Notes under the pieces: generated by a model | Seen by the model: the letters and a program-made list of their open reading frames with translations, nothing else | What the model was told of the DNA's origin: nothing | The model's database searches: none | Origin: a virus | Lineage: Duplodnaviria; Caudoviricetes | Length of the DNA stretch: 64,000 nt | Virus record (IMG/VR): IMGVR_UViG_3300049740_002155 | Reading direction: 5' to 3' (one strand) | Made by a program: the position numbers and the translations under genes | Part shown: piece by piece, positions 3,262-61,701 of the stretch | How the letters are laid out: the number at the start of each line of letters is the position of its first letter | How positions within the stretch are numbered: the first letter of the stretch is position 1

Positions 3262-3690
3262 ATGGAAGAATATACTGAAGATTTAGAAGAAAAAGAAAAG
3301 TATTTACTTCTCTTAAATAAAACAGGAGCAAGTTTGAAACCAACTTATCTTAGTAACAATCCAACAGATAAAGTTGTAGAACCATCGACAGATGATTATA
3401 TAAAAGGAATGATGAATAGATATTTTGTAGCAAAAGCAAACGATTTATACTCACAGATATATGAAGTAACTCCTGCTGAATATAAACAATTTAAAAAAAA
3501 TCCATTTTATGTAACCGCAACAATGAGGTGGAAAATAACAGGTCCTTTAAAAAATGTTTATGACAGAGGAATTTTAAAAAATCGTGGAGTAGTTGATTTT
3601 AATATGGTGTCATATCAGGAAATTCAGGCAGTCATGCCACGAATCGACACTAAGATAAGTGCATTGAATCAATTTCACAAAACTGATTGA
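3262..3690 (+). CDS. Hypothetical phage protein
   Basis: 142-aa ORF packed directly after the hub gene. Confidence 0.7.
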   Translation: MEEYTEDLEEKEKYLLLLNKTGASLKPTYLSNNPTDKVVEPSTDDYIKGMMNRYFVAKANDLYSQIYEVTPAEYKQFKKNPFYVTATMRWKITGPLKNVYDRGILKNRGVVDFNMVSYQEIQAVMPRIDTKISALNQFHKTD

Positions 3691-3715
3691 CATTGTTTTT
3701 ATATTTTAGTATGAT
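3687..3715 (+). promoter_or_regulatory. sigma70-type promoter (polA), leaderless
   Basis: TTGACA-17 nt-TATGAT, then 6 nt to ATG 3722. Confidence 0.8.
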
Positions 3716-3721
3716 GGAAAC

Positions 3722-5020
3722 ATGACAATTTATGTCGAGACATTAAATGATTTCCAAGATTTTCAAACTGGCATAGCAAACGGAACTTGCTTTTTTCATT
3801 TTATTTATGATGAAAGTGTGCATCCGATCAAGGTTCAACCATGTGTTTTATTTGTATATCACTTTGAAACTGACAAAACATTTGTATTTTCATTTAATCA
3901 TCCAGATGTAGTTTGTATAAACTATAACATACTAAAAAATTTAGTAAATGTAAATGCAACAAAATTAATTTATGATAAAAAGAATGTGTCACATTTTTGT
4001 AATATGAATAATTTTATCGATATTAAATTTGATAGGTATACAAAAACACTTAATGAAATTTCATGTAAACTCCCTGCGTATAAAGATATCAGGTCCTGTC
4101 CAATTATGATACTTAAAAAAAGTTTCGACGATACCTTGAAACTTTTTAAAAATGAAATTTCCAATATAGATGTAGATGCTTATACATTTGAAAACGAATT
4201 CTCAAGACAACTATCTAATATAGAAAAAAATGGAATTTATGTGAATAGATCAATGTTCAATATAGGAGATGTATCATTGTTAGATGATGATGATCTAATT
4301 TATAGTCAATATAATATCTTAACCCCAGCGAATAGACCAAGTAATCGTTTTTCAAAAATAAACTTTGCGGCTTTAAATAAAAAGAAAAATGAACGAGATT
4401 CCATTTGTAGTCGGTATGAAGATGGTGCTATTGTAATGGTGGATTACGAGAGTTATCATTTAAGATTATTTGCAGACTATGTGAGATTTGAATTACCAAA
4501 ATCTTCTTTGCATGAATACCTTGGAAAATTATATCACGATAAAGAAACACTAACCGAGGAAGAGTACGAGTTGTCCAAGAAAATTACTTTTAACATAATG
4601 TATGGTGGTGTCTCTGATGATATACGTAATAATATTCCGTTCATGGCAAAAATAGCAGATTATGCGGAGAATATGTATAAAAAATATTTAGAAGATGGTT
4701 TTGTTAATACGTGGTATTTTAATCGTAAGATGAGATACGAAACCTACGGTAAATTAAATCCCTATAAATTATTTAATTATCTTTTACAAAATGCCGAAAC
4801 TGAACGAAATTGTTTAATGATGAAAAATATTCACTCGGTTATTGAGAATACGGATGTTAAATTAATACTCTATCATTACGATGCATTTATATTTGACATG
4901 AAGTCAACCGACTTTATTTTGACCAAGAAAATTAAAAGTAAACTACACGAAGATGGTAAATTTCCTGTAAAGTTTTATGCGGGAATAAACTATGGCAATA
5001 TGAAATTAGTTAATGTTTGA
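3722..5020 (+). CDS. polA: Compact family-A DNA polymerase
   Basis: Motif A VDYESYHLR, motif B SKKITFNIMYG, motif C HYDAFIFD; RPSNRF and INFAALNK palm/thumb motifs. Confidence 0.8.
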   Translation: MTIYVETLNDFQDFQTGIANGTCFFHFIYDESVHPIKVQPCVLFVYHFETDKTFVFSFNHPDVVCINYNILKNLVNVNATKLIYDKKNVSHFCNMNNFIDIKFDRYTKTLNEISCKLPAYKDIRSCPIMILKKSFDDTLKLFKNEISNIDVDAYTFENEFSRQLSNIEKNGIYVNRSMFNIGDVSLLDDDDLIYSQYNILTPANRPSNRFSKINFAALNKKKNERDSICSRYEDGAIVMVDYESYHLRLFADYVRFELPKSSLHEYLGKLYHDKETLTEEEYELSKKITFNIMYGGVSDDIRNNIPFMAKIADYAENMYKKYLEDGFVNTWYFNRKMRYETYGKLNPYKLFNYLLQNAETERNCLMMKNIHSVIENTDVKLILYHYDAFIFDMKSTDFILTKKIKSKLHEDGKFPVKFYAGINYGNMKLVNV

Positions 5021-5075
5021 GAAAAGAATTGATATTTATATGTATATTTTAATTTTTAAATGGTTATATAAGTAC

Positions 5076-5474
5076 ATGAAAACTCAATTGTTATGCACCT
5101 TCTCTCAGATAAATGATTATCGTATGGTGATTAACAAAATAACAAACTTTTACAAAATAGTATTTGGAAAAGTTTATGTATTGCAAAACAAAGATGATGT
5201 AGATGAATTAATGTTGACATATAACATCGACGCAGATGTTTGCACTCAATCTAGTTTTTTTCCAGACACAATAAGTGTGCATAGGAAAAAAGATTCAAAT
5301 ACACTTTACACCATTAACTCACTTAATGGGTTGATTAAAAAACTTAATAATGGTGTTTTGGACACTGCTTATTCAATAAATTGGAATGACTATAAAAATA
5401 CAATATTATTGACAGACTCTGACAAGGGTGTAAGATTAGTGCCAACAAAACTTTACGAAATCATAAAAATTTAA
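5076..5474 (+). CDS. Hypothetical phage protein (MKTQLLCTF...)
   Basis: ORF track 5013-5474; start moved to ATG 5076 to avoid overlap with polA and an AT-rich low-complexity upstream part. Confidence 0.65.
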   Translation: MKTQLLCTFSQINDYRMVINKITNFYKIVFGKVYVLQNKDDVDELMLTYNIDADVCTQSSFFPDTISVHRKKDSNTLYTINSLNGLIKKLNNGVLDTAYSINWNDYKNTILLTDSDKGVRLVPTKLYEIIKI

Positions 5475-5482
5475 TTTATTAT

Positions 5483-5511
5483 TTGACTCACTCACAAAAA
5501 AAATATAAGGT
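5483..5511 (+). promoter_or_regulatory. sigma70-type promoter (prkA operon)
   Basis: TTGACT-17 nt-TAAGGT, 7 nt to ATG 5519. Confidence 0.65.
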
Positions 5512-5518
5512 AATGGTT

Positions 5519-7621
5519 ATGGAAAATAAAAAACGACAAAAAGAAAACAAAGAAGACACTCAAAAGCATCTCGCATCGTTAATTACGGCTGATAACAATG
5601 ATGCGGTAAGCACATATGAGTCTTTAAATTGGACAGGTACATTTTGGGATTATGTAGAAATGTTGGAACAAAATCCAAGTATTGCAAAAAATTCGTATCA
5701 AAGACTTTACGACATGGTTATGTCACATGGTGTAGAAGAATTTACTTATTGTAAACGTAAACACATTAAGTATAAGTTTTTCGAGGGTCTTGGGGACATT
5801 TCTATTTATGGTCTTGAAGAAAATTTGATGGAATTTATGGATATTCTTAAAAGTGCAAGTAGACACTATGGACCAGAACGACGTGTTATTTTATTACACG
5901 GTCCGGTAGGAAGTAGTAAGTCAACTATTGTAACTGCACTTAAAAAGGGTCTTGAGCAATACACACAAACTGAAGAAGGTGCTTTATATTCATTCAGTTG
6001 GAAGGTTTCTGATAAAGATGGAAACGAAGTCATTGTTCCATGCCCAATGAATGAAGAACCTTTGAAACTTTTACCAGACGATGTGCGTAATGAAATTATT
6101 TCTAGATTAAATGCACAACGTAGTGATGATGACTATAAACTTAAATTAGATGGTGCATTGAATCCGGTTAATGAGTTTTACTATAATCAATTAATGGAGA
6201 TGCACGGAGGAGATTACAGAAAGGTACTCGATCATATTGTCGTACGTCGTGTTACTCTTTCAGAAAAGAATCGTGTCGGAATCGGTACTTTCCAGCCGAA
6301 AGACGAAAAGTCACAAGACGCAACCGAGTTAACAGGTGATATTAATTATCGCAAGTTGGCAGAATACGGAAGTGAAAGTGATCCACGTGCATTTGATTTT
6401 GATGGTGAATTTTTAGTATCAAATCGTGGACTCATTGAGTTCCAAGAAATTCTTAAACTTCAAACTGAGTTTTTATATGACTTGTTGGGTGCTACTCAAG
6501 AACACCGTGTTAAACCACGTCGTTTTAATCAAGTACCTATTGATGAAGTTATTCTTGGACACACCAATAATGCTGAGTTTGAAAAGTTAACAAACAATAA
6601 ATTTATGGAAGCACTTCGTGATAGAACTATCAAGATTGACATTCCTTATCTTCTTAAAATTGACGAAGAAAAGAAAATCTATGATCACTTCTACAACACG
6701 GATACTGTAAATAAACACATTGCACCTCATACAACTTATTTGGCTGCATTGTTTGCAGTTGTAAGTCGTTTGGAAGAAAGTTCAAAGCAAGACATGAGCA
6801 TCATTCAAAAAGCAAAACTTTACAATGGTCAAAGTGTACATGGATTCACAGATGAACACGTTAAAGAAATGCAAGAAGAATCTCCAAAAGAAGGATTGTA
6901 TGGTGGAGTATCTGCTCGTTTCGTTCAGAACCAGTTTTCTAATGCAATCGTTAATCCAAGAATGGGTGCTAAGAGTTTGAATCCTTTCATGTTGTTTGCA
7001 CAAATCCGTGAAGGACTTAAAAGTTATAGTGGATTTTCATCGGAAGATGATAAGAAGAACATGATGGAACGGCTTGAATCTGTTGAAAAGGAATACGATA
7101 GAATTGTGAAACGAGAAGTACAACAAGCACTTAGTAGCAGTGAAGAAGCAATAAAAGCACTTTGTACAAATTACATTGATAATATCGTTGCATACATTCA
7201 AGACGAAAAAGTTACCAATCCAGTTACAGGCAAAGAAGAAGTTGCAAATGAACAACTTATGCGTAGTATCGAAGAAAAGATTGGTATTTCCAATGGTATG
7301 AAGGATGACTTCCGTAGAGAAATTATGAACTATATGGGTGGACTTGCCGCCAAGGGTAAAGAATTCAAGTATGATTCAAACGAGCAACTTTACAAAGCAC
7401 TTGAAAAGAAGTTATTTGAAGATACTAAAGATAGCATCAAGTTATCTGCTCTTGCACAAGATACTGCAACCGTAGTTGATAAAGAACTTCTTGAAAAGAT
7501 TGACGCACTTAAGCAACGTCTTATTACATCCTTCGGATATGATGCAGATAGTGCTTCTGATGTTCTTACATATGTAGGTAGTATTTTTGCAAGAGGTGAT
7601 GCAGACGAAGACGAAGATTAA
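5519..7621 (+). CDS. prkA: PrkA/YeaG family AAA+ protein (annotated serine kinase)
   Basis: LLHGPVGSSKST Walker A, CPMNEEPL, GIGTFQPKDEKSQD, NRGLIEFQE, RDRTIKIDIPY; start moved to ATG 5519. Confidence 0.93.
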   Translation: MENKKRQKENKEDTQKHLASLITADNNDAVSTYESLNWTGTFWDYVEMLEQNPSIAKNSYQRLYDMVMSHGVEEFTYCKRKHIKYKFFEGLGDISIYGLEENLMEFMDILKSASRHYGPERRVILLHGPVGSSKSTIVTALKKGLEQYTQTEEGALYSFSWKVSDKDGNEVIVPCPMNEEPLKLLPDDVRNEIISRLNAQRSDDDYKLKLDGALNPVNEFYYNQLMEMHGGDYRKVLDHIVVRRVTLSEKNRVGIGTFQPKDEKSQDATELTGDINYRKLAEYGSESDPRAFDFDGEFLVSNRGLIEFQEILKLQTEFLYDLLGATQEHRVKPRRFNQVPIDEVILGHTNNAEFEKLTNNKFMEALRDRTIKIDIPYLLKIDEEKKIYDHFYNTDTVNKHIAPHTTYLAALFAVVSRLEESSKQDMSIIQKAKLYNGQSVHGFTDEHVKEMQEESPKEGLYGGVSARFVQNQFSNAIVNPRMGAKSLNPFMLFAQIREGLKSYSGFSSEDDKKNMMERLESVEKEYDRIVKREVQQALSSSEEAIKALCTNYIDNIVAYIQDEKVTNPVTGKEEVANEQLMRSIEEKIGISNGMKDDFRREIMNYMGGLAAKGKEFKYDSNEQLYKALEKKLFEDTKDSIKLSALAQDTATVVDKELLEKIDALKQRLITSFGYDADSASDVLTYVGSIFARGDADEDED

Positions 7622-11457: not shown

Positions 11458-11486
11458 TTGACGAAATTCAAATCGAGTTGTATTAT
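11458..11486 (+). promoter_or_regulatory. sigma70-type promoter (ssb-recA)
   Basis: TTGACG-17 nt-TATTAT. Confidence 0.7.
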
Positions 11487-11528
11487 ATTAAGAATAATAA
11501 TAACAAATACAAAATTAAGGAATAAAAA

Positions 11529-12359
11529 ATGGCAATTGACCTAGATAAAATCAAAGCAAAACTTACGAACCTCTCTCAGAGTAACAATCGTAAGAACTAT
11601 CAATGGAAACCCCAACCTGGAAAGCAACAGGTTCGTATCGTGCCTTACAAGCATCAACCAGATAATCCGTTTATTGAGTTGTTTTTTCATTACGGAATCA
11701 ACAATCGGACTTATCTTTCTCCCAAGTCATTTGGTCGTCCAGACCCTATTGTTGAGTTTGCTGAAAAGTTAACTCGTAGTGGAGATAAAGATGATTATCG
11801 CATGGGACGTTCTCTTATGCCAAAAATGAGAACTTTTGTTCCTGTCATCGTTCGTGGTGAAGAAGCAGAAGGTGTTAGGTTTTGGGGATTTGGTAAAGAA
11901 GTTTACCAAGAACTATTAGGAGTCATTGCAGACCCCGATTACGGAGACATTACCGATGCAACTAATGGAAGAGATATTACAATAGAATTTCTTTCAGCAG
12001 AAGAAGCAGGAAGGTCATTTCCAAAGACTAATATTCGTGTTAAACCAAACACATCACCTATATCTGAAAATAAAAATATAGTTGATGGTGTTGCCAACAA
12101 TCAAGCAGAAATCACAGAGATTTATCAAGAATTAAGTTACGATGAATTGAAAGATGCTCTTGAAAAATGGGTAAGTGGAGAAACTGAAGAAGATGCTCCA
12201 CCTGCCGAGTCAGTCACAGACAACGCAGTTGTCGTTGAAGAAACACAAAAAGAAGTAAAGCAACCAACTGTTGCTAGTGCAACTTCTGAACAAAGCAAAC
12301 CAAACGCAACTTCTACGGAAGATGTAGAGGCTGCTTTTGAAGAGTTGTTCAAGTCTTAA
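11529..12359 (+). CDS. Single-stranded DNA-binding protein (T4 gp32-like)
   Basis: WKPQPG..VRIVP, FFHY, FWGFGK, YGDITD, acidic C-terminal tail; next to recA. Confidence 0.8.
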   Translation: MAIDLDKIKAKLTNLSQSNNRKNYQWKPQPGKQQVRIVPYKHQPDNPFIELFFHYGINNRTYLSPKSFGRPDPIVEFAEKLTRSGDKDDYRMGRSLMPKMRTFVPVIVRGEEAEGVRFWGFGKEVYQELLGVIADPDYGDITDATNGRDITIEFLSAEEAGRSFPKTNIRVKPNTSPISENKNIVDGVANNQAEITEIYQELSYDELKDALEKWVSGETEEDAPPAESVTDNAVVVEETQKEVKQPTVASATSEQSKPNATSTEDVEAAFEELFKS

Positions 12360-18713: not shown

Positions 18714-18742
18714 TTGACTTAAAACCTTTATTGGGGTAATAT
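18714..18742 (+). promoter_or_regulatory. sigma70-type promoter (S1 protease)
   Basis: TTGACT-17 nt-TAATAT; GGAGG Shine-Dalgarno before ATG 18786. Confidence 0.7.
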
Positions 18743-18785
18743 ATATGAATATATTATTAACCAATCAACCCAGGAGGGTAAACCA

Positions 18786-19814
18786 ATGAATTCAAGCAAG
18801 ATTTTCGCAATCGTGGCCTTTATGGCAATCTCCGTCAATGTTATTTTCGGAGCACCAAATCACAAACAATTAAGGGAAGTTGCGGATCACTTGCAAGATG
18901 TATCGGTTACAATAAAAGCAAAAGCACGATATAGTAGTTCAGAAGGTTCTGGTGCAATGATTATCCGTGAAGTTGACGGAAAAAAAGTTACATTTGTTTG
19001 GACGGCTGCTCATGTTGTAGATAATCTTCGTAAAGTTCGTAGTGTCATTGAAGGTGGTGCTCCTGTAAAGATCGTTGAATTTGATGATGCATCAATTGTA
19101 AAAGAACTTGTGGAAAAAGGTCGTAGAGTTGGTGAAATGAAAATGGATGCTAAGATCATCAAGTATTCAAATGCTGACGATGGACACGATTTGGCACTTC
19201 TTATGGTTCGTGCAAAAGACTACGCAAAAGACGGAGTTGATTTTTATCTCAAAGAAGATAACGACAGAATAATTCCAATTGGAACTGATTTATTCCACGT
19301 TGGTTCATTGCTTGGTCAAATGGGTGCTAATTCAATGACAACTGGAATTATTTCACAAGTCGGAAGAACTCTTGATAAATTTGAATACGATCAAACAACC
19401 GTTACTGCTTTTCCAGGAAGTTCTGGAGGTGGAGTTTATTTGCAAAACGGACAATATGTAGGAATGATTGTTCGTGGTGCAGGTGAAGGATTTAATTTGA
19501 TGGTCCCTGTACGAAGAATGATTCGTTGGGCAGAAAAGAATGACATTATGTGGGCAATTGATCCTAAAGTTGAAATGCCACCTATGGACGAAATTCTAAG
19601 TATGCAAATTGAAGACACCGGAGTCATTCGCAAGAATGATGACGAAGACGAAGACGAGTATAGCATAAAGTCTGCGTTTCCATATAGAATTAAAACTGAG
19701 TATAAATTTGACAATAAATTATTAAATGGATTTGATAAATCTGAAGAGTTTGGAAAAGAATTAAAGATTATGCCATTTGATGGAATGAGTCCTTACAAGA
19801 TTGAGCATAGATAA
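18786..19814 (+). CDS. Exported trypsin-like (S1) serine protease
   Basis: N-terminal signal peptide; triad motifs TAAHV, HDLAL, GSSGGG. Confidence 0.88.
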   Translation: MNSSKIFAIVAFMAISVNVIFGAPNHKQLREVADHLQDVSVTIKAKARYSSSEGSGAMIIREVDGKKVTFVWTAAHVVDNLRKVRSVIEGGAPVKIVEFDDASIVKELVEKGRRVGEMKMDAKIIKYSNADDGHDLALLMVRAKDYAKDGVDFYLKEDNDRIIPIGTDLFHVGSLLGQMGANSMTTGIISQVGRTLDKFEYDQTTVTAFPGSSGGGVYLQNGQYVGMIVRGAGEGFNLMVPVRRMIRWAEKNDIMWAIDPKVEMPPMDEILSMQIEDTGVIRKNDDEDEDEYSIKSAFPYRIKTEYKFDNKLLNGFDKSEEFGKELKIMPFDGMSPYKIEHR

Positions 19815-30366: not shown

Positions 30367-30410
30367 TTTTTGAGTTTGACTAATATCGTAGTTTATATAA
30401 TAATAGTAAT

Positions 30411-31802
30411 ATGTTTATTGAAGAGTTTAAAGATTATATAAAAGAAGAATATGAAGATTTCAACGGAGATTTGATAAAACCTTATTATGAAATTGATTCC
30501 ATAAGTTGGTCTAAGTTAAAAGAAAAATACGATAAAGAAGATATAAAAGAAACTCTTGCGGAAATTCTAATGCAGTATGAACCACCGTATATGGATATTA
30601 CTGAAAACGATGCAAAATCTGATTTTTATTCTTTGGTTGACTTTACATATAAAAACTTAAATGAATATACAGAAGTAAAACGAAATGTTAATACGAGTTT
30701 TTTTGAGTCGTTTGAAATGACGAATGAACAAGAAGAAAATTACGAAAAAAGTTCAAGTAAAGTAAAAAAGCAAAGACAAAATTCACTTTTTATAGAAACA
30801 CCTTGGTTTGCTCGTTCTGAATATGATTGGAAATTAAGCAATCGTGTTTTGAAAAGAAATAATACAGGTAATAAAGCAAGTAATTATTATCAGCAAAAAA
30901 ATCGTTGGAGTGTAGATGGAAGTGTTTCTCCTGGTCCTTTGCGTACTTGGAGCAATAAAGATTTTATGACAAGTTTAATGGGAAGTTTGTTTACATTAAA
31001 AGCAGAAAAAGTTGATAAATCTTCTTTAAGAACAAGCATAGGACTTAGAAAATATATTTGCAGTCAGTTTAAACCAAATGTTGCAAAACTTATTTATGAT
31101 TTTTATGTAGAATCACTTCCAAAAAAATTTCAAGATAAAGCAAACAAAGTTGAAACTGTGTTGGATTTTAGTATGGGTTGGGGTGACAGATTGTGTGGTT
31201 TTTATGCAAGCAACTCAAAAAAATATATTGGAATAGACCCCCGAACAGAAAATCATCCTATATATAATCAACAAAAATTATGCTATGAAGACTTATTGCG
31301 TAAACAAAAAGAAACTCATTTTATTGAATCACCTGCTGAAGATGCCGATTTAACATCGTTCGCAAATTCAGTTGATTTAATATTCACAAGTCCACCTTAT
31401 TTTTCTGTGGAACGGTATAGTTACGATGACACACAAAGTTGGGTTCGTCATAAAAATATTGATCGTTGGAACGAGGACTTCTTACACAAAGCATTAAATA
31501 ATGTTTTGACAACTTTGAAAAAAGGTGGTTTATTAATGGTAAATATAAGTGATGTTAATGCAACAAGTCAAGGAACTAAAGGTGGAAAGCAATGGTTGAA
31601 AATTTGTGATCCTATGAATGAATATCTTCAAAGTCGTGGTGATATGCAATATGTAGAATGCTTTGGAATGGAAATGGCAAAACGACCAAATTGCTTGGGA
31701 ATTGGTACAGCAGATGACATTGAAGATAGCAATATGGATGCAGAATATCACGAACGAGAAGGAAGTTTTGGAGAACCAGTGTGGGTTTGGCAAAAAAACT
31801 GA
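30411..31802 (+). CDS. Amino-methyltransferase (phage type; DNA target presumed)
   Basis: LDFSMGWGDRL SAM-binding motif, FTSPPYF. Confidence 0.8.
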   Translation: MFIEEFKDYIKEEYEDFNGDLIKPYYEIDSISWSKLKEKYDKEDIKETLAEILMQYEPPYMDITENDAKSDFYSLVDFTYKNLNEYTEVKRNVNTSFFESFEMTNEQEENYEKSSSKVKKQRQNSLFIETPWFARSEYDWKLSNRVLKRNNTGNKASNYYQQKNRWSVDGSVSPGPLRTWSNKDFMTSLMGSLFTLKAEKVDKSSLRTSIGLRKYICSQFKPNVAKLIYDFYVESLPKKFQDKANKVETVLDFSMGWGDRLCGFYASNSKKYIGIDPRTENHPIYNQQKLCYEDLLRKQKETHFIESPAEDADLTSFANSVDLIFTSPPYFSVERYSYDDTQSWVRHKNIDRWNEDFLHKALNNVLTTLKKGGLLMVNISDVNATSQGTKGGKQWLKICDPMNEYLQSRGDMQYVECFGMEMAKRPNCLGIGTADDIEDSNMDAEYHEREGSFGEPVWVWQKN

Positions 31803-39702: not shown

Positions 39703-40011
39703 ATGGGAAAAAAGTATAATAGTTTCGATGAATACTATGAGTTTTATTTGAGCAAGCATAAAAACCCACTTAATCGTTTTCTTCATCTTCTTGGTAATAT
39801 TGCCACAATAACATTTGTTGTAAGTGTATTCAAGTTTGATTTAAGTTTATGGTGGCTGTTGCTTACTCCATTCGTAGTTTATCCATTGGCTGCATTGGGA
39901 CATTTCATTTGCGAAGGAAATATGCCTGCGTTTTTATCAGGTAATCCTATTTACGCAAAAATGAGTGATTGGAAAATGCTTTATCAATGGTTGACTGGTA
40001 AACTCAAGTAA
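39703..40011 (+). CDS. DUF962 / Mpo1-like membrane protein
   Basis: YEFYLSKHKNP.NR.LHLLG, GHFICEGN.PA, SDW.M. Confidence 0.85.
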   Translation: MGKKYNSFDEYYEFYLSKHKNPLNRFLHLLGNIATITFVVSVFKFDLSLWWLLLTPFVVYPLAALGHFICEGNMPAFLSGNPIYAKMSDWKMLYQWLTGKLK

Positions 40012-40025
40012 TCTATAATAATATC

Positions 40026-41294
40026 ATGTCGTTTGAAGTGAATTTTGATGGGTTGGTCGGTCCAACTCATAATTACGCAGGTTTGTCCCACGGAAATGTT
40101 CACTCGGTAAACAATAAAAACAAACCGAGCAATCCTAGACGGGCTGCACTTCAAGGTTTAGATAAAATGAAGTTGATGTATGATCTTGGATACAAACAAT
40201 GTATTATACCACCACAAGAACGACCTTTAATCAACGATTATGACGATTATTGTAACATGGCAATCAATGCTTCTGCGAGCAGTATGTGGGTTGCAAATTC
40301 GTCTACAATAGTACCAAGTTCTGATACAAAAAATAACAAGTTGAATATTTTGACTGCAAATTTAAATTTCACACATCATCGCAGAATTGAAGCACCCCAA
40401 ACTCATATTACTTTAAATAAAATTTTCAACGATACCTCTAAATTTTTAGTTCATTCTCCTTTGAATAGTGACGGAACATTAGATGACGAAGGTGCAGCCA
40501 ATCATACTAGATTTTGCAATTCATATGAAGAAGAAGGATTGCACTTTTTTGTATATGGTCGTTCAAACGACTCATCGGAGATTCGTCCGATCAACTATCC
40601 TGCAAGACAAACTTACGAAGCATCCAAAAAAGTTGCGGAAAATATGCAAGTCAATAACGCAGTATTTGCACAACAATCTGCGGAAAGTATTGATGCGGGT
40701 GTATTTCACCATGATGTTATTGGTGTGGGTAACAAGAATTTATATTTTTATCACGAAAAGGCACTAGCAGAAGAAGCAGAAACAATTGCAAAGTTACAAG
40801 ATGCGTTTGTTGGTAAATTAAATTTTTTGTGCGTAAAGGAATCTGAAGTTCCGATGGATGTGGCAGTTGAGACATATCTATTTAATAGTCAACTAGTTGA
40901 ATATGAAAATGGACATATGCTAATAGCACCCATAAGATGTCGTAGAAACTCATTGGTAAGAAAATACTTACAAAGTATTACAGGTAAACATAAACTGATT
41001 AAAAAGGTACGGTATGTTAATTTAGAGCAAAGTTTATGGAACGGTGGTGGTCCTGCTTGCTTGAGATTGAGGGTGGTGATGAATAAGTCTGAGTTTTCTG
41101 CTTTGCATCCTGGTATAATTTTTGATGATAGATTATACACAAGACTGCGTAAATGGATTAAAAAATATTATGTAGGAAATTTAATTTATGATGATCTATT
41201 TACACCAAGTTTTATTCAACGAGGTCGAGACGCATTATTTGAACTTACGAATATTCTTGGGTTGGGTTATATATACCCACTTCAGTTGAAATAA
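40026..41294 (+). CDS. astB: N-succinylarginine dihydrolase
   Basis: EVNFDGLVGPTHNYAGLS.GN, ALQGL.KM, PPQERP, ASSMW.AN, DEGAANH, VFH.DVI, NGGGPACLRLRV. Confidence 0.95.
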   Translation: MSFEVNFDGLVGPTHNYAGLSHGNVHSVNNKNKPSNPRRAALQGLDKMKLMYDLGYKQCIIPPQERPLINDYDDYCNMAINASASSMWVANSSTIVPSSDTKNNKLNILTANLNFTHHRRIEAPQTHITLNKIFNDTSKFLVHSPLNSDGTLDDEGAANHTRFCNSYEEEGLHFFVYGRSNDSSEIRPINYPARQTYEASKKVAENMQVNNAVFAQQSAESIDAGVFHHDVIGVGNKNLYFYHEKALAEEAETIAKLQDAFVGKLNFLCVKESEVPMDVAVETYLFNSQLVEYENGHMLIAPIRCRRNSLVRKYLQSITGKHKLIKKVRYVNLEQSLWNGGGPACLRLRVVMNKSEFSALHPGIIFDDRLYTRLRKWIKKYYVGNLIYDDLFTPSFIQRGRDALFELTNILGLGYIYPLQLK

Positions 41295-41316: not shown

Positions 41317-41535
41317 GTGTTCTATGACTCAAAACCTTATTTTTATTTGCTTATTGAGTTATTTGTTTTTACAACTATAATATTACATACACAGATTGCT
41401 AAAATTGAAATAGATATAAAAGAAGAAACAAAACGAGAATTGGAACTACATGAATTCATAGAAGATGTAAAAAGTGATCCTGTAAAGATTCAAAAAATTC
41501 TACAACTTCAAAAAAATAGTTTGACAAAAAAATAA
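41317..41535 (+). CDS. Small membrane-anchored hypothetical protein
   Basis: GTG start 4 nt after CTATTTAT; N-terminal TM segment. Confidence 0.5.
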   Translation: MFYDSKPYFYLLIELFVFTTIILHTQIAKIEIDIKEETKRELELHEFIEDVKSDPVKIQKILQLQKNSLTKK

Positions 41536-41559
41536 AAATCGTCATAATTGGATGCTATT

Positions 41560-42234
41560 ATGAAAACATTAGTTAAAATAATCGCAACCGTCGCCGTTCT
41601 TGGTGGAGGGTTTTTCGCATATCAAACCGTTAACGCAGTAGAACTCACAGGTAAGGCTGGAGTCTCTTATACAGACACACGTACATTCCGTGGTGTAAAG
41701 CAAGCAGATGACACTCTTGGTGCTTCTCTTGGTCTTTCCACTTCTGTTTCTGAAAAAGTATCTTTGGGAGTTTCCATTGATTCTTTTAATGCGTTGGAAG
41801 CAGGTCAAACCAATGAACTTCGTAGTGGAGTTTCTATGGGTTATGATCTTGGTAAGGTTGGTTTGAGTGTCGGATACACTAACTATGATTATCAAAGTGC
41901 TACAAGTGCTGACGAAATCGGATTTGGTTTGTCCGTGGAAACTATCCTCAACCCAAGTGTTTTGTATGCAATCGATTCAGATAATGATTCGGATGTAGCA
42001 GAATTATCGGTATGTCATGAGTTTTCTCTTGCAGAAAACATCGGATTGGCATTGTGCGGTTCGTTGGGTAATGTTGATGCGGCTGCTGATTACACTTATC
42101 ATAGTGTAGGAGCACGTCTCAACACAACTATTGCAGGTGCTGACACATTTGCAGGTATTGCCCTCGTTGACAATGATAACGCTGGAAGTGATTCCGAGAC
42201 TGTATTCTCAGTCGGAGTGTCTCTTTCATTCTAA
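41560..42234 (+). CDS. Outer-membrane beta-barrel protein (TorF-like putative porin)
   Basis: Signal peptide ending VNA, FRG motif near the mature N-terminus, alternating beta-strand pattern, C-terminal Phe (VGVSLSF); start at ATG 41560. Confidence 0.75.
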   Translation: MKTLVKIIATVAVLGGGFFAYQTVNAVELTGKAGVSYTDTRTFRGVKQADDTLGASLGLSTSVSEKVSLGVSIDSFNALEAGQTNELRSGVSMGYDLGKVGLSVGYTNYDYQSATSADEIGFGLSVETILNPSVLYAIDSDNDSDVAELSVCHEFSLAENIGLALCGSLGNVDAAADYTYHSVGARLNTTIAGADTFAGIALVDNDNAGSDSETVFSVGVSLSF

Positions 42235-42763: not shown

Positions 42764-42792
42764 TTGACAAATATATGATGTTATAGTACATT
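42764..42792 (+). promoter_or_regulatory. sigma70-type promoter
   Basis: TTGACA-17 nt-TACATT, 5 nt to ATG 42798. Confidence 0.6.
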
Positions 42793-42797
42793 ATGGT

Positions 42798-43040
42798 ATG
42801 AGTACAAAAATATCATTGGATAACGGAAACAAGCAAATTGAATTATCCAAAGAAGGAAAAACTTATCGTATGCGAATAAGTTACAAAAAGAAAGTAACTT
42901 GGAATCCGTTTCAGAAACAAGAAACTGACATAGTTTTAGAACAAGACCAACTTGAACAACTCGCAGGATTTCTGAATCTTCATAATAATAGTTATCCTTC
43001 TTCAACCAATAATATAGATTTCGGAACAAGCATGGAATAA
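42798..43040 (+). CDS. Hypothetical protein
   Basis: 80-aa ORF behind a promoter. Confidence 0.65.
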   Translation: MSTKISLDNGNKQIELSKEGKTYRMRISYKKKVTWNPFQKQETDIVLEQDQLEQLAGFLNLHNNSYPSSTNNIDFGTSME

Positions 43041-43908: not shown

Positions 43909-43937
43909 TTGACTTTTTATAATAATTTTGGTAGGGT
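43909..43937 (+). promoter_or_regulatory. sigma70-type promoter
   Basis: TTGACT-17 nt-TAGGGT. Confidence 0.55.
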
Positions 43938-43987
43938 GTATATCTAGAGAGAAATTATATAAAAAACTAAAATAGAGAGAAAAAATT

Positions 43988-44395
43988 ATGGGAACGATAA
44001 CAGATAACTGGATAAATTATATTGATAATAGGAATGCGTTTGAGTCAATTGAATGGAATTGGGAAGCATTATCTCCCCACGATTGTTTTAATTCAATTAA
44101 TGCAAGGGTCCCATTTGATGGGGGTGTGATAGAAATATTTACCGGAAATTTAATTCCACACGGATTTTTGTCAAGTAATGTTTGCATTGAAGCATCTTTT
44201 GATCCTGAACATCCTGAAGGACCTGATTCTGCTCTTAATCACGCAACTTTCCACGTTGGCATTTTTGATAACGAAGGAAACGAGATTCAATGCCCAATCA
44301 CCAATGGAATTTTTCCTGAGGAAGGTGACACTCATGGTGCGAATCTTGAACCACAAGAAGTGGGTCAGATTATTCTTCAATTTCAGAACGACTAA
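43988..44395 (+). CDS. Hypothetical protein
   Basis: 135-aa ORF, GAGAG-rich leader. Confidence 0.7.
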   Translation: MGTITDNWINYIDNRNAFESIEWNWEALSPHDCFNSINARVPFDGGVIEIFTGNLIPHGFLSSNVCIEASFDPEHPEGPDSALNHATFHVGIFDNEGNEIQCPITNGIFPEEGDTHGANLEPQEVGQIILQFQND

Positions 44396-44433
44396 TACTT
44401 GACTTTCTATAATAATAATGTATTATAGTATCT

Positions 44434-44754
44434 ATGAATAATAACGCAATGTTTGAAGAATTAACATTCATTCCACATCGTGGATCGGTAAACTGCATCC
44501 AAGCAAGAAAAGATTTTGATAATGGATGTACGATTTCTGTTGTAACTGGTGACGGAATGTATGGTGACATTGATGTAAATGATTTCTATAAATCTACATT
44601 TGAAGTGGCCGCATTCGATAATAACAATGAATTCATTCAGTTGACACCCTCTGATGATGTCATTGGTCATCGAACAAAAACTGAAGTAAATGAAATTATG
44701 ACTGCATTGCGTGATGATCCTGAATCGTTACGAGTAAATGCAACCAATAGTTAA
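44434..44754 (+). CDS. Hypothetical phage protein
   Basis: FDNGCTISVV..YG...FEVA pattern; TTGACT-16-TATTAT promoter 7 nt upstream. Confidence 0.7.
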   Translation: MNNNAMFEELTFIPHRGSVNCIQARKDFDNGCTISVVTGDGMYGDIDVNDFYKSTFEVAAFDNNNEFIQLTPSDDVIGHRTKTEVNEIMTALRDDPESLRVNATNS

Positions 44755-45285: not shown

Positions 45286-45314
45286 TTGACGGAATCAAAC
45301 TCATTTGATAATAT
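45286..45314 (+). promoter_or_regulatory. sigma70-type promoter (AAA-vWA pair)
   Basis: TTGACG-17 nt-TAATAT. Confidence 0.7.
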
Positions 45315-45346
45315 ATAATATAATTTTAATATAACCAAGGAAATAA

Positions 45347-46915
45347 ATGAATCTTAAACCAAACAACTTTGATTTTTGGATTGAAACCAATCTAAATGTA
45401 TTGCTTCGTGGTAAACACGGAGTTGGAAAAACTGCTATGGTAGTTGATGCGTTTGAACGCAACAATTTGAAGTACAAATATTTTAGTGCAAGCACAATGG
45501 ACCCGTGGGTTGACTTTATCGGAGTTCCCAAAGAAAAGACCGATGATAATGGAAACTCTTATTTGGATTTGGTTCGTCCACAAGAATTTCAAGATGATGA
45601 AGTAGAAGCAATTTTTATGGACGAGTTTTCAAGAGCACACAAGAAAGTTCGTAATGCAGTAATGGAACTTATTCAGTTCAAGAGTATCAATGGTCGTAAG
45701 TTCAAGAATCTCAAAATTGTATGGGCTGCCATCAATCCTGAAGATGATGAAGAATTTAATTATGACGTAGATGCACTTGATCCTGCACAAGAAGATAGAT
45801 TTCATGTTCACATTGAAGTTCCATATAAACCTGATGTAACTTGGTTTCGTGAAAACTTCGGAACACAACTCGCCAATTCAGCAGTATCTTGGTGGAACGA
45901 ACTTCCACCAAATGTGCAAACTAAAGTAACTCCTCGTAGATTAGAGTATGCGTTGAAAGTTTATGGAGCAAAAGGAAATCTTCGTCACGTTCTTCCTACA
46001 TCTTCTAATGTAAGTAAATTGATGCGTGTGCTAACAGATGGACCCATTGAAGAAAAATTGGTTGCGTTGGCTGCTCGTAAGAAACTTGCAGACGCACGTG
46101 ATTTTATTAAAACGGAAAACAATTATCGTGATGGTCTTCCTTATATCATCAAAAGCAAGAAACTTCGTGACTTTTTTGTTCCATTGTTTGCAAACGAAAA
46201 GTTGTCTAATTTAATGGCAACTGAAACTGATGTATACAAACTTGCGGTAGATCGTATCAAAAGCAAAGATCAAAAATTCACGGACATTGCAAAAGATATT
46301 GTTACTGCAAATCAAAACAAAAAGTTGGCAAAGCAGTTGACCAAAGACTTGCATCATATTCTTAATGTTGTAGATATGAGTGAACTTAAAACTGCTCCTC
46401 AAAGTGCAACAGGCAACACCGCAAATGATGATGTAACTTTTCAACAAATTATTAAAGGTTTGCTTACACGAAGAGTAACAACAACTGCACATCGTAAAGA
46501 ATTAATTTCAGATTTGGTTGGAAATATACCTGCAAAGGGAATGTCTGTTAAATCTGCAACAGAAGCAATTGAAATGATTGATTCAGTTGCTGAACGTTCT
46601 CATTCGTATACCATTGCTTCTCCTGAGATTGTAGGTGCAATCAATAGTTGTATTTATACAATATGTTCTGAGCAGAAATTGAATTGGGAAGCATTCATTA
46701 AAAAGCACGGATCAATTATTGCAAACTTTTTTCAGAAAATGAAAGATTCAAATCGTGAAAAAAAGATTTATCAACCTGGAAGATACAAAGATAATGAAAG
46801 CAAAATTGCAAAGAATTTGTTTGCGAACTTGAGTGTTGGTACAAAAAAGAAAACACCACCACCTGTTCCACAAAAAATGGATTCTTATGTACTCACCGGT
46901 GATTGGGACGGATGA
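45347..46915 (+). CDS. MoxR/AAA_5-like AAA+ ATPase
   Basis: GKHGVGKT Walker A, IFMDEFSRA Walker B, WAAIN, LDPAQEDRF. Confidence 0.88.
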   Translation: MNLKPNNFDFWIETNLNVLLRGKHGVGKTAMVVDAFERNNLKYKYFSASTMDPWVDFIGVPKEKTDDNGNSYLDLVRPQEFQDDEVEAIFMDEFSRAHKKVRNAVMELIQFKSINGRKFKNLKIVWAAINPEDDEEFNYDVDALDPAQEDRFHVHIEVPYKPDVTWFRENFGTQLANSAVSWWNELPPNVQTKVTPRRLEYALKVYGAKGNLRHVLPTSSNVSKLMRVLTDGPIEEKLVALAARKKLADARDFIKTENNYRDGLPYIIKSKKLRDFFVPLFANEKLSNLMATETDVYKLAVDRIKSKDQKFTDIAKDIVTANQNKKLAKQLTKDLHHILNVVDMSELKTAPQSATGNTANDDVTFQQIIKGLLTRRVTTTAHRKELISDLVGNIPAKGMSVKSATEAIEMIDSVAERSHSYTIASPEIVGAINSCIYTICSEQKLNWEAFIKKHGSIIANFFQKMKDSNREKKIYQPGRYKDNESKIAKNLFANLSVGTKKKTPPPVPQKMDSYVLTGDWDG

Positions 46916-48182: not shown

Positions 48183-48211
48183 TTGACAATTCAAAAATAA
48201 ACGTATAAAAT
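48183..48211 (+). promoter_or_regulatory. sigma70-type promoter (rpsU), leaderless
   Basis: TTGACA-17 nt-TAAAAT, 6 nt to ATG 48218. Confidence 0.8.
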
Positions 48212-48217
48212 AAAAAC

Positions 48218-48412
48218 ATGATTAAAGTAAAAGTAAGAGAAGGTGAACCTGTTGATCGGGCATTAAAACGACTTAAAAAGAAACTCAAAGACGAAGCAAT
48301 TCTTGATTCGGTGAGACAAAGAAGATACTTCGTACCGAAGTCCGAAAAACGCAAGAAGGCAAAGCAAAAAGCATATTACTCTCAGTTGATGCAAGAATAC
48401 AAAAATAGATAA
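48218..48412 (+). CDS. rpsU: Ribosomal protein bS21
   Basis: VKVREGEPVDRALKRLKKK...IL..VR.RRYF..SEKR. Confidence 0.9.
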   Translation: MIKVKVREGEPVDRALKRLKKKLKDEAILDSVRQRRYFVPKSEKRKKAKQKAYYSQLMQEYKNR

Positions 48413-48413
48413 A

Positions 48414-57928: not shown

Positions 57929-58459
57929 ATGATGGTAATTAAAGGAACTAAAAGAATATTGTCTTTATTTTTGCTTTGTGCTTCTGCATTGAATGCAGAC
58001 TTTGTTAAAAATTGGAGCAAGTATTATCAAACCTCTTTAGATGCTTCCAAAGAAAATCGTGCAAGGTTGGTAATTGAAAACGGATATTCAGTTCCGAGTT
58101 CTGCACAAAAAGCAATTGAAATTGCGGCCGACATCTTTGAGGGTGATGAAGGTAAAACTCGTAGTCAGTTGATAAAGTATCTTTCTCATACCGGTGCAGT
58201 AGAAAGTTTATACAAAACCAAAGTTCAGTATGGTAATGGTCCTGCTCGTAGTTATTGGCAAGTTGAACCTAAAACCGCAATGGATGTAGTTAAAAACTCT
58301 AGTGCTTATTTCGGAAAGAAGTTTCATGCTAAGTATGGTAAGAATGCTTTAAGAAAGTTGCAATCATTGAACGAAGCACAATGGGCAGATGCTCTTGAGA
58401 AGTACGATGAAATTGGTGCTATCATGGCAACTGCAAAGTGGTTAGCAACATCTTGGTAA
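57929..58459 (+). CDS. Exported protein, possibly lysozyme-like
   Basis: Signal peptide (ALNA); VES..K...Q.G.GPARSYWQVEP.TA resembles a lysozyme-superfamily E...GxxQ pattern. Confidence 0.45.
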   Translation: MMVIKGTKRILSLFLLCASALNADFVKNWSKYYQTSLDASKENRARLVIENGYSVPSSAQKAIEIAADIFEGDEGKTRSQLIKYLSHTGAVESLYKTKVQYGNGPARSYWQVEPKTAMDVVKNSSAYFGKKFHAKYGKNALRKLQSLNEAQWADALEKYDEIGAIMATAKWLATSW

Positions 58460-58466
58460 TTTAGAT

Positions 58467-58495
58467 TTGCAATTATTTTTTGTTTCATATAAAGT
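58467..58495 (+). promoter_or_regulatory. sigma70-type promoter, leaderless
   Basis: TTGCAA-17 nt-TAAAGT, 6 nt to ATG 58502. Confidence 0.6.
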
Positions 58496-58501
58496 ATTGA
58501 C

Positions 58502-58954
58502 ATGAACTGGCCGGAATACTTTTATGATATGGCAAATCTCGTTGCCAAGAAAAGCAAAGATCAATCTACACAAATTGGTGCAGTCATAGTGGGACCTGAT
58601 AACGAAATTCGTTCAACTGGTTACAATAGTTTTCCAAGTGGTATAAATGATAATTTAGATATCCGACAACAACGACCTGAAAAATATTATTGGATAGAAC
58701 ACGCAGAACGCAATGCTTTGTACAACGCAGCTAAAATAGGTGTATCCACTAAAAATTGTGTTATGTATTTAAATTGCGGAGTTCCTTGTTGCGATTGTGC
58801 TAGAGGAATTATTAACGCAGGAATTAAAAAAATTTATGTATGCGGGAAAGATATAACCAAATCGGATCATTGGTTAGAGCATTCAAAACGGTCACAAATA
58901 ATGTTTGAAGAAAGTGGAGTTGAAGTTATTCGTTATATGAGTTTCTCAAACTGA
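58502..58954 (+). CDS. dCMP deaminase
   Basis: IGAVIV, TGYN, HAERNA, PCCDCAR. Confidence 0.92.
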   Translation: MNWPEYFYDMANLVAKKSKDQSTQIGAVIVGPDNEIRSTGYNSFPSGINDNLDIRQQRPEKYYWIEHAERNALYNAAKIGVSTKNCVMYLNCGVPCCDCARGIINAGIKKIYVCGKDITKSDHWLEHSKRSQIMFEESGVEVIRYMSFSN

Positions 58955-59940: not shown

Positions 59941-59941
59941 C

Positions 59942-60016
59942 TTAGAATACTAAGACAAGAACAACTGCAACTGCGACTAACGCAACAATCTGCCATACTT
60001 TAACACCGTGTATCAT
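59942..60016 (-). CDS. 24-aa single-TM microprotein
   Basis: Own translation MIHGVKVWQIVALVAVAVVLVLVF; ATATTTAT (60022-60029, minus strand) 5 nt upstream. Confidence 0.55.
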   Translation of the reverse strand: MIHGVKVWQIVALVAVAVVLVLVF

Positions 60017-60054
60017 ATTACATAAATATAATATATACATTCCCAAGATGTAAT

Positions 60055-60062
60055 ATATTTAT
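60055..60062 (+). promoter_or_regulatory. ATATTTAT motif (candidate late promoter), divergent from the copy at 60022-60029
   Basis: 7 nt upstream of the Nudix ATG 60070. Confidence 0.5.
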
Positions 60063-60069
60063 TTAAAAG

Positions 60070-60531
60070 ATGAAATTAGTAGAAGCAATGAAAGAAATAG
60101 CAGAGCAATCGGCAGGAATTATCGTATACAGAAAAAATTCCGAGGGCATTCCTGAGTTTTTATTGCTTAACGGAGATGCAATTGGTTGGGGATTTCCCAA
60201 GGGTCATGTTGATAAAGGAGAAAATCTTATTCAAACTGCAAAGCGAGAAACTTACGAAGAAACTTCTCTTAAAATTTCAAAGTTAGAATCTGGATTCAAA
60301 CAAGAAGTTAAGTATTTTCTGAAGAAGAATTGGTCAACTGGTAAGCAATACAAAATACCCAAGTTAAAGATGGTGACTTATTTTCTTGCGGAAGTTCCTT
60401 ACGAATCAAATGTAAGAATTTCACACGAACATATTGGATTTCTTTGGTTGCCATATTCCAAGGCAAAAAAGAAGCAGTTGTTCAACAAGAAACTTCTCAA
60501 GTATGCAAAGGATTATATTTTGGCAAAGTGA
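60070..60531 (+). CDS. Nudix hydrolase (Ap4A hydrolase-like)
   Basis: SAGIIVYR, WGFPKGH, Nudix box GHVDKGENLIQTAKRETYEET, SHEH..W. Confidence 0.9.
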   Translation: MKLVEAMKEIAEQSAGIIVYRKNSEGIPEFLLLNGDAIGWGFPKGHVDKGENLIQTAKRETYEETSLKISKLESGFKQEVKYFLKKNWSTGKQYKIPKLKMVTYFLAEVPYESNVRISHEHIGFLWLPYSKAKKKQLFNKKLLKYAKDYILAK

Positions 60532-61104
60532 TTACTTCCCAAACTCGTAATTAAAATACTCAATGTCTTTTGCGTATTTTTCCGCAACAATTGAACGAGT
60601 TTCGTCATCATAGTATTCGGTGTATTGTTCATGCTGAGTTTTATTCCAGTGAGGTAATTCACATTCAGAAACTCCAACTTCGTTGCAAATAAAATCAAAA
60701 TCTTTTTGTAAATTTTCAAATTTTCCGATGAAATTTACATAATCGTGGTTTATGAGATTGTATTGTAAACGATGATGTCTATCGCAATTATTGAAATCGT
60801 CATTCTTAATTGCATGAACAAATTCCGTAAAAGAATGATTTTTGTATTTTACATAATCACGTAATTGCCATTTTGTTCCGATTGACATTTTCGTTTTGTC
60901 TAAAAAACAAGATACAAGTCTGTCCCACGGATTTCTAACAAACGCAAACTGAAAATATTTTCTATGTCCGTATAAATGCTTGGATTTTACAGTGGCCACC
61001 GAAAAGTCAGGATGTTTGCAAAAGAACATTTTCACAGAACTGCATCCAGTTTTTGGGACTTCATACCAAAAAAGTTTAAGTTGGGGACATTTGTACAGAA
61101 TCAT
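60532..61104 (-). CDS. Sulfotransferase family 2 protein
   Basis: VPKTGCSS PAPS-binding loop, FVRNPWDRLVS, FIGKFENL..DF; ATATTTAT 6 nt upstream on the minus strand. Confidence 0.85.
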   Translation of the reverse strand: MILYKCPQLKLFWYEVPKTGCSSVKMFFCKHPDFSVATVKSKHLYGHRKYFQFAFVRNPWDRLVSCFLDKTKMSIGTKWQLRDYVKYKNHSFTEFVHAIKNDDFNNCDRHHRLQYNLINHDYVNFIGKFENLQKDFDFICNEVGVSECELPHWNKTQHEQYTEYYDDETRSIVAEKYAKDIEYFNYEFGK

Positions 61105-61117
61105 TAAAAAATAAATA

Positions 61118-61146
61118 TTGACTTTTTATAATATTCATGCTAATAT
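61118..61146 (+). promoter_or_regulatory. sigma70-type promoter (def), leaderless
   Basis: TTGACT-17 nt-TAATAT, 6 nt to ATG 61153. Confidence 0.8.
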
Positions 61147-61152
61147 GCTAAT

Positions 61153-61701
61153 ATGAAAATCGTTAATTACGGACAAGAAATTTTAGAAACTCCGACTCAA
61201 AAGGTTACGGAGTTTAATGAAGACTTAGTAAAGTTTACCGAAGATATGATTTCCACGATGAAGTCAAGCAATGGAGTTGGATTGGCTGCTCCACAAGTCG
61301 GCGATAATCGTAGAATCTGTGTGATTGATTTGGGATTCACCGAAGGATTTGTTTATGATGGAGAAAAGGTTCTAACCGATGACTACTACCCCTTGGTTTT
61401 GATTAATCCCGAAATCAAAGTCGTATCAGAAGCAAAGTCTATTATGAATGAAGGATGTTTGAGTTTTCCTGGTGTAACTCTTGAAGTTAAACGTCCAAGT
61501 ATCATCAAACTTACTTTTCAAGATATTGAAGGAAACAATCGCATCGTAGAATGTGCCGGTGGTCTTGCTCGTTGCATTCAACACGAAGTTGATCATCTTG
61601 ATGGAGTTTTATTTAATCAACGAACCAAGAAAATTAAAAACAAGGATGCTAAATTAATCCGCAAAATCAAATCTGAAAATGCCAATCTTACATTACACTA
61701 A
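61153..61701 (+). CDS. def: Peptide deformylase
   Basis: GVGLAAPQVG, EGCLS, QHEVDHLDG. Confidence 0.96.
   Translation: MKIVNYGQEILETPTQKVTEFNEDLVKFTEDMISTMKSSNGVGLAAPQVGDNRRICVIDLGFTEGFVYDGEKVLTDDYYPLVLINPEIKVVSEAKSIMNEGCLSFPGVTLEVKRPSIIKLTFQDIEGNNRIVECAGGLARCIQHEVDHLDGVLFNQRTKKIKNKDAKLIRKIKSENANLTLH

Follow-up and report, generated by a model that had tools for sequence, protein, structure and literature searches.

Promoters abutting start codons suggest leaderless or near-leaderless first cistrons in a marine T4-like phage

The stretch of viral DNA analysed here (IMG/VR record IMGVR_UViG_3300049740_002155; 64,000 nucleotides (nt), hereafter the window) is a section of a marine T4-like phage genome of about 263 kb, and we describe in it a set of genes whose start codon lies directly behind the -10 box of a sigma70-type promoter. 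The window has 34% GC, is 95.7% coding (4.3% non-coding) and carries nearly all its genes on the + strand. They encode a DnaB-like helicase, the large subunit of ribonucleotide reductase, a PrkA-like kinase, an arginine succinyltransferase (AST) cluster with an AstB recognized by Pfam at an E-value of 6e-151, two DNA methylases, the ribosomal protein bS21, a dCMP deaminase and a peptide deformylase (PDF), together with two tRNAs. In a protein index the AstB of the window is assigned to a contig of 263,379 bp. DNA nearly identical to the window is present in many seawater metagenomes, and the phage group also occurs in Tara samples; neither a near-identity DNA search nor a tblastn search with bS21 matched a cultured phage.

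A preliminary description of the window had reported seven promoters of the form TTG(A/C)NN-17 nt-TANNNT that are followed by 6 nt and the start codon. All seven are in the sequence exactly as described, with -35 boxes starting at 3687, 48183, 50787, 53483, 57894, 58467 and 61118 and an ATG start at each gene except for a GTG at 50822. From the -35 box to the start codon, with spacings in nt and all on the + strand, they are TTGACA-17-TATGAT-6-ATG (3687..3724) before a polA-like gene of 432 amino acids (aa), TTGACA-17-TAAAAT-6-ATG (48183..48220) before rpsU, the gene of bS21 (64 aa), TTGACA-17-TATATT-6-GTG (50787..50824) before a lipoprotein-like gene (140 aa), TTGACA-17-TATATT-6-ATG (53483..53520) before a DNA methylase gene (356 aa), TTGACT-17-TAGTAT-6-ATG (57894..57931) before a 176-aa gene, TTGCAA-17-TAAAGT-6-ATG (58467..58504) before the dCMP deaminase gene, which has the weakest -35, and TTGACT-17-TAATAT-6-ATG (61118..61155) before def, the gene of PDF. 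A hairpin at 57881-57895 overlaps the -35 of the 176-aa gene. At three sites the TGA stop codon of the upstream gene lies inside the TTGACA -35 box (3688-3690, 50788-50790 and 53484-53486), so that the gap between the two genes is exactly 31 nt and is filled entirely by the promoter.

Four near matches given in the same description are also real. They are found at the PrkA-like kinase gene (700 aa; TTGACT-17-TAAGGT-7-ATG, 5483..5521, start codon at 5519), at a 106-aa gene with a 16-nt spacer (TTGACT-16-TATTAT-7-ATG, 44399..44436, start at 44434), at an 80-aa open reading frame (ORF) immediately 3' of tRNA-Leu (TTGACA-17-TACATT-5-ATG, 42764..42800, start at 42798) and at a DNA methylase gene (463 aa) with a weak -10 (TTGACT-17-AATAAT-6-ATG, 30376..30413, start at 30411). 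A fifth, at 43115, does show the extended -10-like sequence TGgTATTCT but has no -35, and is hence weak. We found five further sites. They precede astB (TTGACT-17-TATAAT-6-ATG, 39991..40028, start at 40026), where the -35 and the spacer lie within the 3' end of the upstream gene, an ORF that continues past the end of the window (TTGACC-17-TAATAT-6-ATG, 63913..63950, start at 63948), a 38-codon ORF (TTGACG-17-TATATT-7-ATG, 56027..56065, start at 56063), an 84-aa gene (TTGACT-16-TACTAT-8-ATG, 49980..50018, start at 50016) and a 224-aa gene (TTGACA-16-CATAAT-11-ATG, 41521..41562, start at 41560), for which a leader of 4-5 nt is predicted. Over these 16 sites the -10-to-start distance is 6 nt ten times, 7 nt three times and 5, 8 and 11 nt once each.

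The position of the start codons is well constrained. Those of bS21, PDF, dCMP deaminase and AstB are fixed by their Pfam domains, which begin at residues 1-3. The N-termini of orthologues align with the proposed starts, including the GTG at 50822, which corresponds to the ATG of its orthologues and whose next in-frame ATG is codon 45. With 6 nt between the -10 and the ATG, transcription would usually initiate at the A of the ATG. At 14 of the 16 sites a pyrimidine precedes the start codon (P 0.008), in keeping with the known Y(-1)R(+1) preference at sites of transcription initiation. No gene among these sites starts less than 5 nt from its -10, as is expected if the start codon must lie within the transcript. 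In the PrkA-like gene, two ATGs lie in frame at 1 and 7 nt from the -10 (aATGgttATG, 5513-5521), and both are kept in two long relatives of the phage, G1 (152 kb) and G2 (115 kb); only the second can be on a transcript that begins at the usual position. At the 80-aa ORF (42798-43040), which overlaps an 82-aa ORF of the - strand (42781-43029), the promoter follows tRNA-Leu(TAA), the end of which lies 7 nt before the -35 (42670-42800 for the whole arrangement); this arrangement is kept in six relatives.

The non-random nature of this layout was assessed on the window with shuffled sequences. The pattern of the preliminary description followed by RTG has 10 matches, compared with 1.57 ± 1.33 over 100 dinucleotide-shuffled sequences, all of which have fewer than 10, and nine of the 10 matches are starts of long ORFs. 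The stricter form TTGACN-17-TANNNT occurs at 20 sites on both strands. An ATG follows its -10 at 6 nt in seven cases (binomial P 1.4e-7), at 7 nt in two and at 28 nt in three, while every other offset up to 30 nt is seen at most once. The histogram of -10-to-start distances and the comparison with shuffled sequences, of the kind that the preliminary description had proposed, both show an enrichment at 6 nt in this 64-kb window. The 20 sites are also unevenly placed: 17 lie on the + strand, which is the gene strand, and three on the - strand, all three inside genes. Fifteen of the 17 fall into the 4.3% of the window that is non-coding. A start codon follows 5-7 nt after the -10 at 11 of these 15 intergenic sites, and the other four have gaps of 32-50 nt. 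Between 44 and 64 kb, the best sigma70 matches (11 of 12 positions) are three sites, all of which abut start codons.

Because of the shuffles, the spike at one offset and the bias in strand and intergenic position, chance is excluded as the source of the pattern. It is accordingly hardly credible that the boxes are a product of AT-rich intergenic DNA, or part of a recombination cassette of the PeSL type, with no role at the 5' end of an mRNA. Two results would fit such an origin: loosely defined sigma70-like matches show no overall enrichment (104 against 90 ± 10), and TANNNT alone, anchored on all candidate starts, peaks only slightly at 6 nt and is more frequent at 0-1 nt. The peak is weak because AT-rich upstream DNA matches TANNNT everywhere, so that a composite test of -35 and -10 is needed. 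The composite pattern, however, is more than six-fold enriched, peaks at a single offset, is specific to strand and intergenic DNA and is conserved. The PeSL anatomy is likewise absent, as an adjoining hairpin is found at one of the 16 sites only (57881-57895).

The layout appears to be a property of this phage lineage. In five unrelated large phages (978 kb) the pattern matched once, against four times for the reversed control, and the cultured pelagiphage HTVC008M has no match. Among the contigs of bS21-carrying phages, which comprise HTVC008M and four others, a close relative has seven matches, one contig has one, and HTVC008M and the two others have none. As these contigs are mostly devoid of matches, the sigma70-type layout is specific to this lineage.

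We analysed its conservation in relatives of the polA-like gene (L003 and L005), in G1 and G2, which are syntenic with positions 1-22 kb of the window and otherwise cover other parts of the genome, and in six more lineages reached through the AstB clade (67-82% identity). Scans of viral contigs with AstB and PDF gave nothing, or only one near-identical relative. Upstream of the polA-like gene, L003 (66% protein identity) and L005 (53%) keep TTGAC(A/T), 17 nt, TAnnnT, 6 nt and ATG, while the spacer and the 6 nt that precede the ATG bear no sequence relation to those of the window. The layout of the PrkA-like gene is kept in three lineages, including G1 (134743) and G2 (11489). The 129 kb unique to G1 contain 12 sites, three of them with the start codon at 6 nt (P 9e-4) and one each at 7 and 8 nt. 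Among the promoter-abutted genes there is that of a family B DNA polymerase, at 8 nt; an orthologous pair is promoter-abutted in G2 as well.

In the AstB-defined lineages the distance is kept to different degrees. It is 6 nt in three of three lineages for the methylase gene at 30411 (TTGACT-17-GATAAT-6-ATG in L078 and L080), 6 nt in five of seven lineages for astB, with 8 nt in one and a decayed promoter in L078, and 5-6 nt in six of seven for the 80-aa gene at 42798. Relatives have 6-8 nt at the 106-aa gene (44434) and 6-10 nt at the 84-aa gene (50016). For the 224-aa gene at 41560, 10-11 nt are kept in seven of seven lineages with fully diverged spacers. In a 94%-identical relative, the 6-nt discriminator of def has the same length and a different sequence. 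For bS21 (48218), 6 nt are found only in the lineage of the window, including an 88%-identical relative. The homologues of dCMP deaminase in 28 viral contigs all lack the promoter; most of them lie inside operons and some have a Shine-Dalgarno (SD) sequence, and they hold no information on its conservation. The layout is thus constrained at some genes, and at others it can be exchanged for a short or a long leader. The claim of the preliminary description that the predicted transcription start coincides with the start codon is thus borne out as geometry: the pattern is statistically strong, follows gene orientation, lies between genes and, for several genes, is kept in diverged relatives (53-82% protein identity).

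The boxes have the features of sigma70-type promoters, namely a TTGACA-like -35, a spacer of 17 ± 1 nt and a TATAAT-like -10, and they are gene-oriented, intergenic and conserved. We consider it quite improbable that they are read instead by a sigma factor encoded or modified by the phage, as a middle or late class whose start-point geometry may differ. The search for sigma genes covered 64 of the approximately 263 kb. In favour of a phage-encoded or phage-modified factor, the language-model features of bS21 and PDF are close to those of Bacteroidota proteins, and among cultured phages the polA-like gene has its nearest relative in a Flavobacterium phage. The housekeeping promoters of Bacteroidota differ in consensus (TTTG at -33 and TAnnTTTG at -7), and the Bacteroidota-like features of bS21 and PDF conflict with the promoter type seen here. 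However, the -35, the spacing and the -10 are those of textbook sigma70 promoters. The TTTG expected in the 3' half of a Bacteroidota-type -7 element was never seen at these sites (ATgg, ATaa, TTat, ATat, GTat, ATgc and others take its place). No MotA-type box, by its generally known consensus, was found near -30, all sites having TTGAC(A/T/C/G) or TTGCAA at -35. The genes served, for replication and nucleotide metabolism, are typical of early and middle classes. In addition, an SD core in three of the four leadered promoters described below argues for a host that reads SD sequences, unlike Bacteroidota. The TTGACA/TATAAT boxes without TAnnTTTG and the SD-like boxes thus argue against a Bacteroidota host. 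The bacterial homologues of AstB, at no more than 49% identity, are mixed, mainly from Gammaproteobacteria with one from a Parachlamydia, and word-based matches of bS21 are restricted to the phage clade.

The four intergenic promoters that do not abut a gene form a contrast class, also on the + strand. They are TTGACG-17-TATTAT with a 42-nt gap containing AAGGAA (11458..11531; conserved in G1 and G2), TTGACT-17-TAATAT with a 43-nt gap containing AGGAGGG (18714..18788; conserved in G1), TTGACT-17-TAGGGT with a 50-nt gap containing the purine-rich run AGAGAGAAA (43909..43990) and TTGACG-17-TAATAT with a 32-nt gap containing CAAGGAAA (45286..45349; leader kept in six relatives), each followed by ATG. 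All four gaps hold a purine-rich box, with an SD core in three and a weak one in the fourth. This suggests that the SD is still read, from the purine-rich boxes of leadered promoters. Over the window, an SD core, scored as AGGA, GGAG or GAGG at -18 to -4, is found in 10 of 70 genes, against a background of 7%. As the phage hardly uses SD sequences, the ribosomes of its host presumably initiate well without them. It is true, as the preliminary description stated, that the promoter-abutted genes have no room for an SD, but this does not set them apart from the other genes. The proposal that went with it, that a leaderless design protects expression when canonical initiation in the host is shut down, is not supported: SD-free initiation is general in this phage, which leaves no protected class, and with an SD-poor genome the idea loses its contrast.

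Taken together, these features are best read, from the sequence and with good though not full confidence, as sigma70-type transcription units whose first cistron is leaderless or nearly so. A -10-like TANNNT about 10-12 bp before the start is the in silico mark of leaderless genes (Zheng et al. 2011, PMC3160421), and the sites of the window have this geometry. Sigma70-type housekeeping promoters (TTGACa/t, 17 ± 1 nt, TAnnnT) would start a set of transcription units at the seventh base after the -10 hexamer, which is the A, or once the G, of the start codon. The mRNA of the first cistron would then be leaderless or have a leader of at most 2 nt (4-5 nt for one gene), and it would be translated without SD contact, with the ribosome and initiator tRNA binding directly at a 5'-terminal AUG. 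A minority of the same promoters would feed leaders of 32-50 nt with a purine-rich box. We infer that the host RNA polymerase uses the sites, that transcription begins at the AUG and that the mRNAs are translated efficiently; these genes would belong to an early class, to judge from promoter type and gene functions. Compaction and a host that tolerates SD-free initiation are the likely selective reasons. Compaction is a plausible force, yet it cannot alone explain a mode at exactly 6 nt.

Compaction is central to another explanation, in which the promoters are real, yet most of the protein comes from longer read-through transcripts begun upstream, through the SD-independent, A/U-rich translation that also serves the internal genes of the phage. 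The abutment would then reflect minimised intergenic space, and leaderless transcripts would add little. We regard this as unlikely, although several observations agree with it: the window is 95.7% coding with almost all genes co-oriented, an SD core is found in few genes, terminator-like hairpins show no enrichment (12, with 8.1 expected), L078 retains astB behind a decayed promoter, and bS21 orthologues work with a 29-33-nt leader. However, compaction predicts neither the sharp mode at 6 nt nor the lack of starts at less than 5 nt, and the same distance is kept for several genes across lineages at 53-82% identity. Moreover, the genes at 61153, after a divergently oriented gene, and at 42798, after a tRNA, need a promoter of their own.

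Several observations weigh against leaderless first cistrons, and some of them concern conservation. In L078, L079 and L080, bS21 keeps TTGACA-16/17-TATAAT/TATACT, followed by an A-rich, SD-free leader of 29-33 nt. The 140-aa lipoprotein gene at 50822 has 6 nt in the window and 13 and 26 nt in its orthologues. Leaders in the orthologues of these two genes thus range from about 6 to 33 nt. As the -35 of astB lies inside the upstream coding sequence, its conservation is not independent evidence. In folding energy and A content over the first 30-40 nt, the leaderless-type genes show no difference from the others (P 0.33). Read-through from preceding units may be the main source of transcripts for genes that lie behind such units. 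Finally, a coincidence is probable for one of the 16 sites, where the ATG at 56063 begins an ORF of only 38 codons that heads a long, structured and RNA-abundant leader, and the promoter of the dCMP deaminase gene is absent from a strain variant.

The last two points draw on RNA data of four metatranscriptome runs, compared with 44001-64000 as assembled contigs, which cover the promoter-proximal genes only thinly. The 38-codon ORF heads a leader of about 255 nt that precedes a DUF2828/DUF7788 (TROVE-like) gene. Positions 56083-56190, within 56027-56317, reach an RNA contig depth of about 360-490 in three metatranscriptomes, compared with 21-111 for the TROVE-like gene. The site at 56027 is thus probably a promoter for an RNA and not for a leaderless gene, and the abundance of its leader RNA suggests a stable small RNA, perhaps Y-RNA-like. 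At the dCMP deaminase gene, RNA contigs of runs X16 and X20 reveal a strain variant in which 58461-58514 are replaced by the 11 nt GGAGTGGTCAA, including GGAG. The promoter and the first codons are thereby swapped for an SD-type junction, and the reading frame is kept.

bS21 deserves separate consideration. The preliminary description counted it among the leaderlessly translated proteins; the layout is indeed present in the lineage of the window, but it is not conserved, three sister lineages having the leader described above. For several bS21 orthologues the recorded length is 90-96 aa and not 64 aa, probably because the gene caller extended them into an open upstream leader. E. coli ribosomes lacking uS2 and bS21 have been linked to efficient leaderless translation of lambda cI (PMC10491246). 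Since ribosomes without bS21 favour leaderless mRNA in E. coli, a role of the phage bS21 as a helper of leaderless translation does not fit. The same finding underlies a more speculative scheme that we think very doubtful, in which the two classes of promoter-to-start distance serve to time translation, as an early-to-late switch at the level of the ribosome. Early leaderless first cistrons, in this lineage also rpsU, would be read by unmodified host ribosomes, and accumulating phage bS21 would then shift the ribosomes towards leadered mRNAs with a purine-rich box.

The window resembles T4 early promoters and PeSL cassettes in having strong sigma70-type promoters before early genes of a T4-like genome. 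T4 early mRNAs have leaders with SD sequences, whereas most promoters of the window abut the start codon, with an adjoining hairpin at a single site. With the TA-led leaderless genes of bacteria (PMC3160421) it shares a TANNNT about 6 nt before ATG or GTG, the lack of an SD and, by prediction, that of a 5' untranslated region. Those systems belong to cellular genomes, mostly high-GC Actinobacteria and Deinococcus, and often have a weak -35, unlike the strong TTGACA -35 and 17-nt spacer of this 34% GC T4-like phage; in mycobacteria, leaderless genes have been mapped experimentally (Shell et al. 2015, PMC4633059). The lambda cI gene transcribed from PRM (PMC10491246) is a phage gene with a sigma70 promoter that starts at the A of the AUG, as predicted here. 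It is one regulatory gene, compared with about a dozen metabolic, replication and translation genes and about 11 of 15 intergenic promoters here. Freshwater Bacteroidota phages (Chen et al. 2022, PMC9723584) are also large phages carrying rpsU. Their bS21 lies among structural genes and is expressed late, in a study without promoter analysis, while rpsU of the window has a sigma70-type promoter and, by prediction, no leader, and its sister lineages combine the same promoter with a leader of 29-33 nt. In phiKZ, differential RNA sequencing found no leaderless transcripts (PMC8244752). In our literature searches, this promoter-to-start layout was not described for any T4-type or marine phage. On the leaderless reading, this is a known mechanism, leaderless mRNA from sigma70 promoters, in a new setting.

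If leaderless first cistrons are indeed used, widespread ocean jumbo phages would express genes for replication, nucleotide metabolism, methylation and translation from leaderless mRNAs. The host would have to read TTGACA/TATAAT promoters and to translate 5'-terminal AUGs, which bears on its inference. The bS21 and 140-aa genes suggest that states with and without a leader swap within a gene family. For annotation, gene callers sometimes extend such ORFs upstream, as for the long bS21 records of some relatives. The 31-nt module consisting of a stop codon in the -35, the promoter and the start would also be a minimal natural expression unit for engineering.

Some additional features of the window were noted. 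The top match of the gene at 3722 is in a 484-kb uncultured phage (34% identity), followed by Flavobacterium phages (25%). It was labelled polA in the preliminary description, but has only 25% identity to an annotated family A polymerase and no Pfam match. AstB (40026-41294) belongs to a large phage-only clade of about 60 clusters at 67-99% identity, with contigs listed up to 569 kb, and the synteny of the AST cluster is whole in all relatives retrieved. One of these, L071 (ENA), is a long-read contig of 569,543 bp with an 81%-identical AstB and the same synteny; it may stem from a much larger phage, from concatenation or from misassembly. Finally, the hexamer TATATA lies no more than 40 nt upstream of the start at 17 of about 80 genes, where 2.1 would be expected (an 8-fold excess), and its distance from the ATG ranges from 2 to about 20 nt; examples are the genes at 20797, 23840, 31822, 32909, 37072, 39421, 39703, 50290, 51260, 55221 and 60070. 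These elements probably represent a second, T4-late-like promoter class with short leaders.

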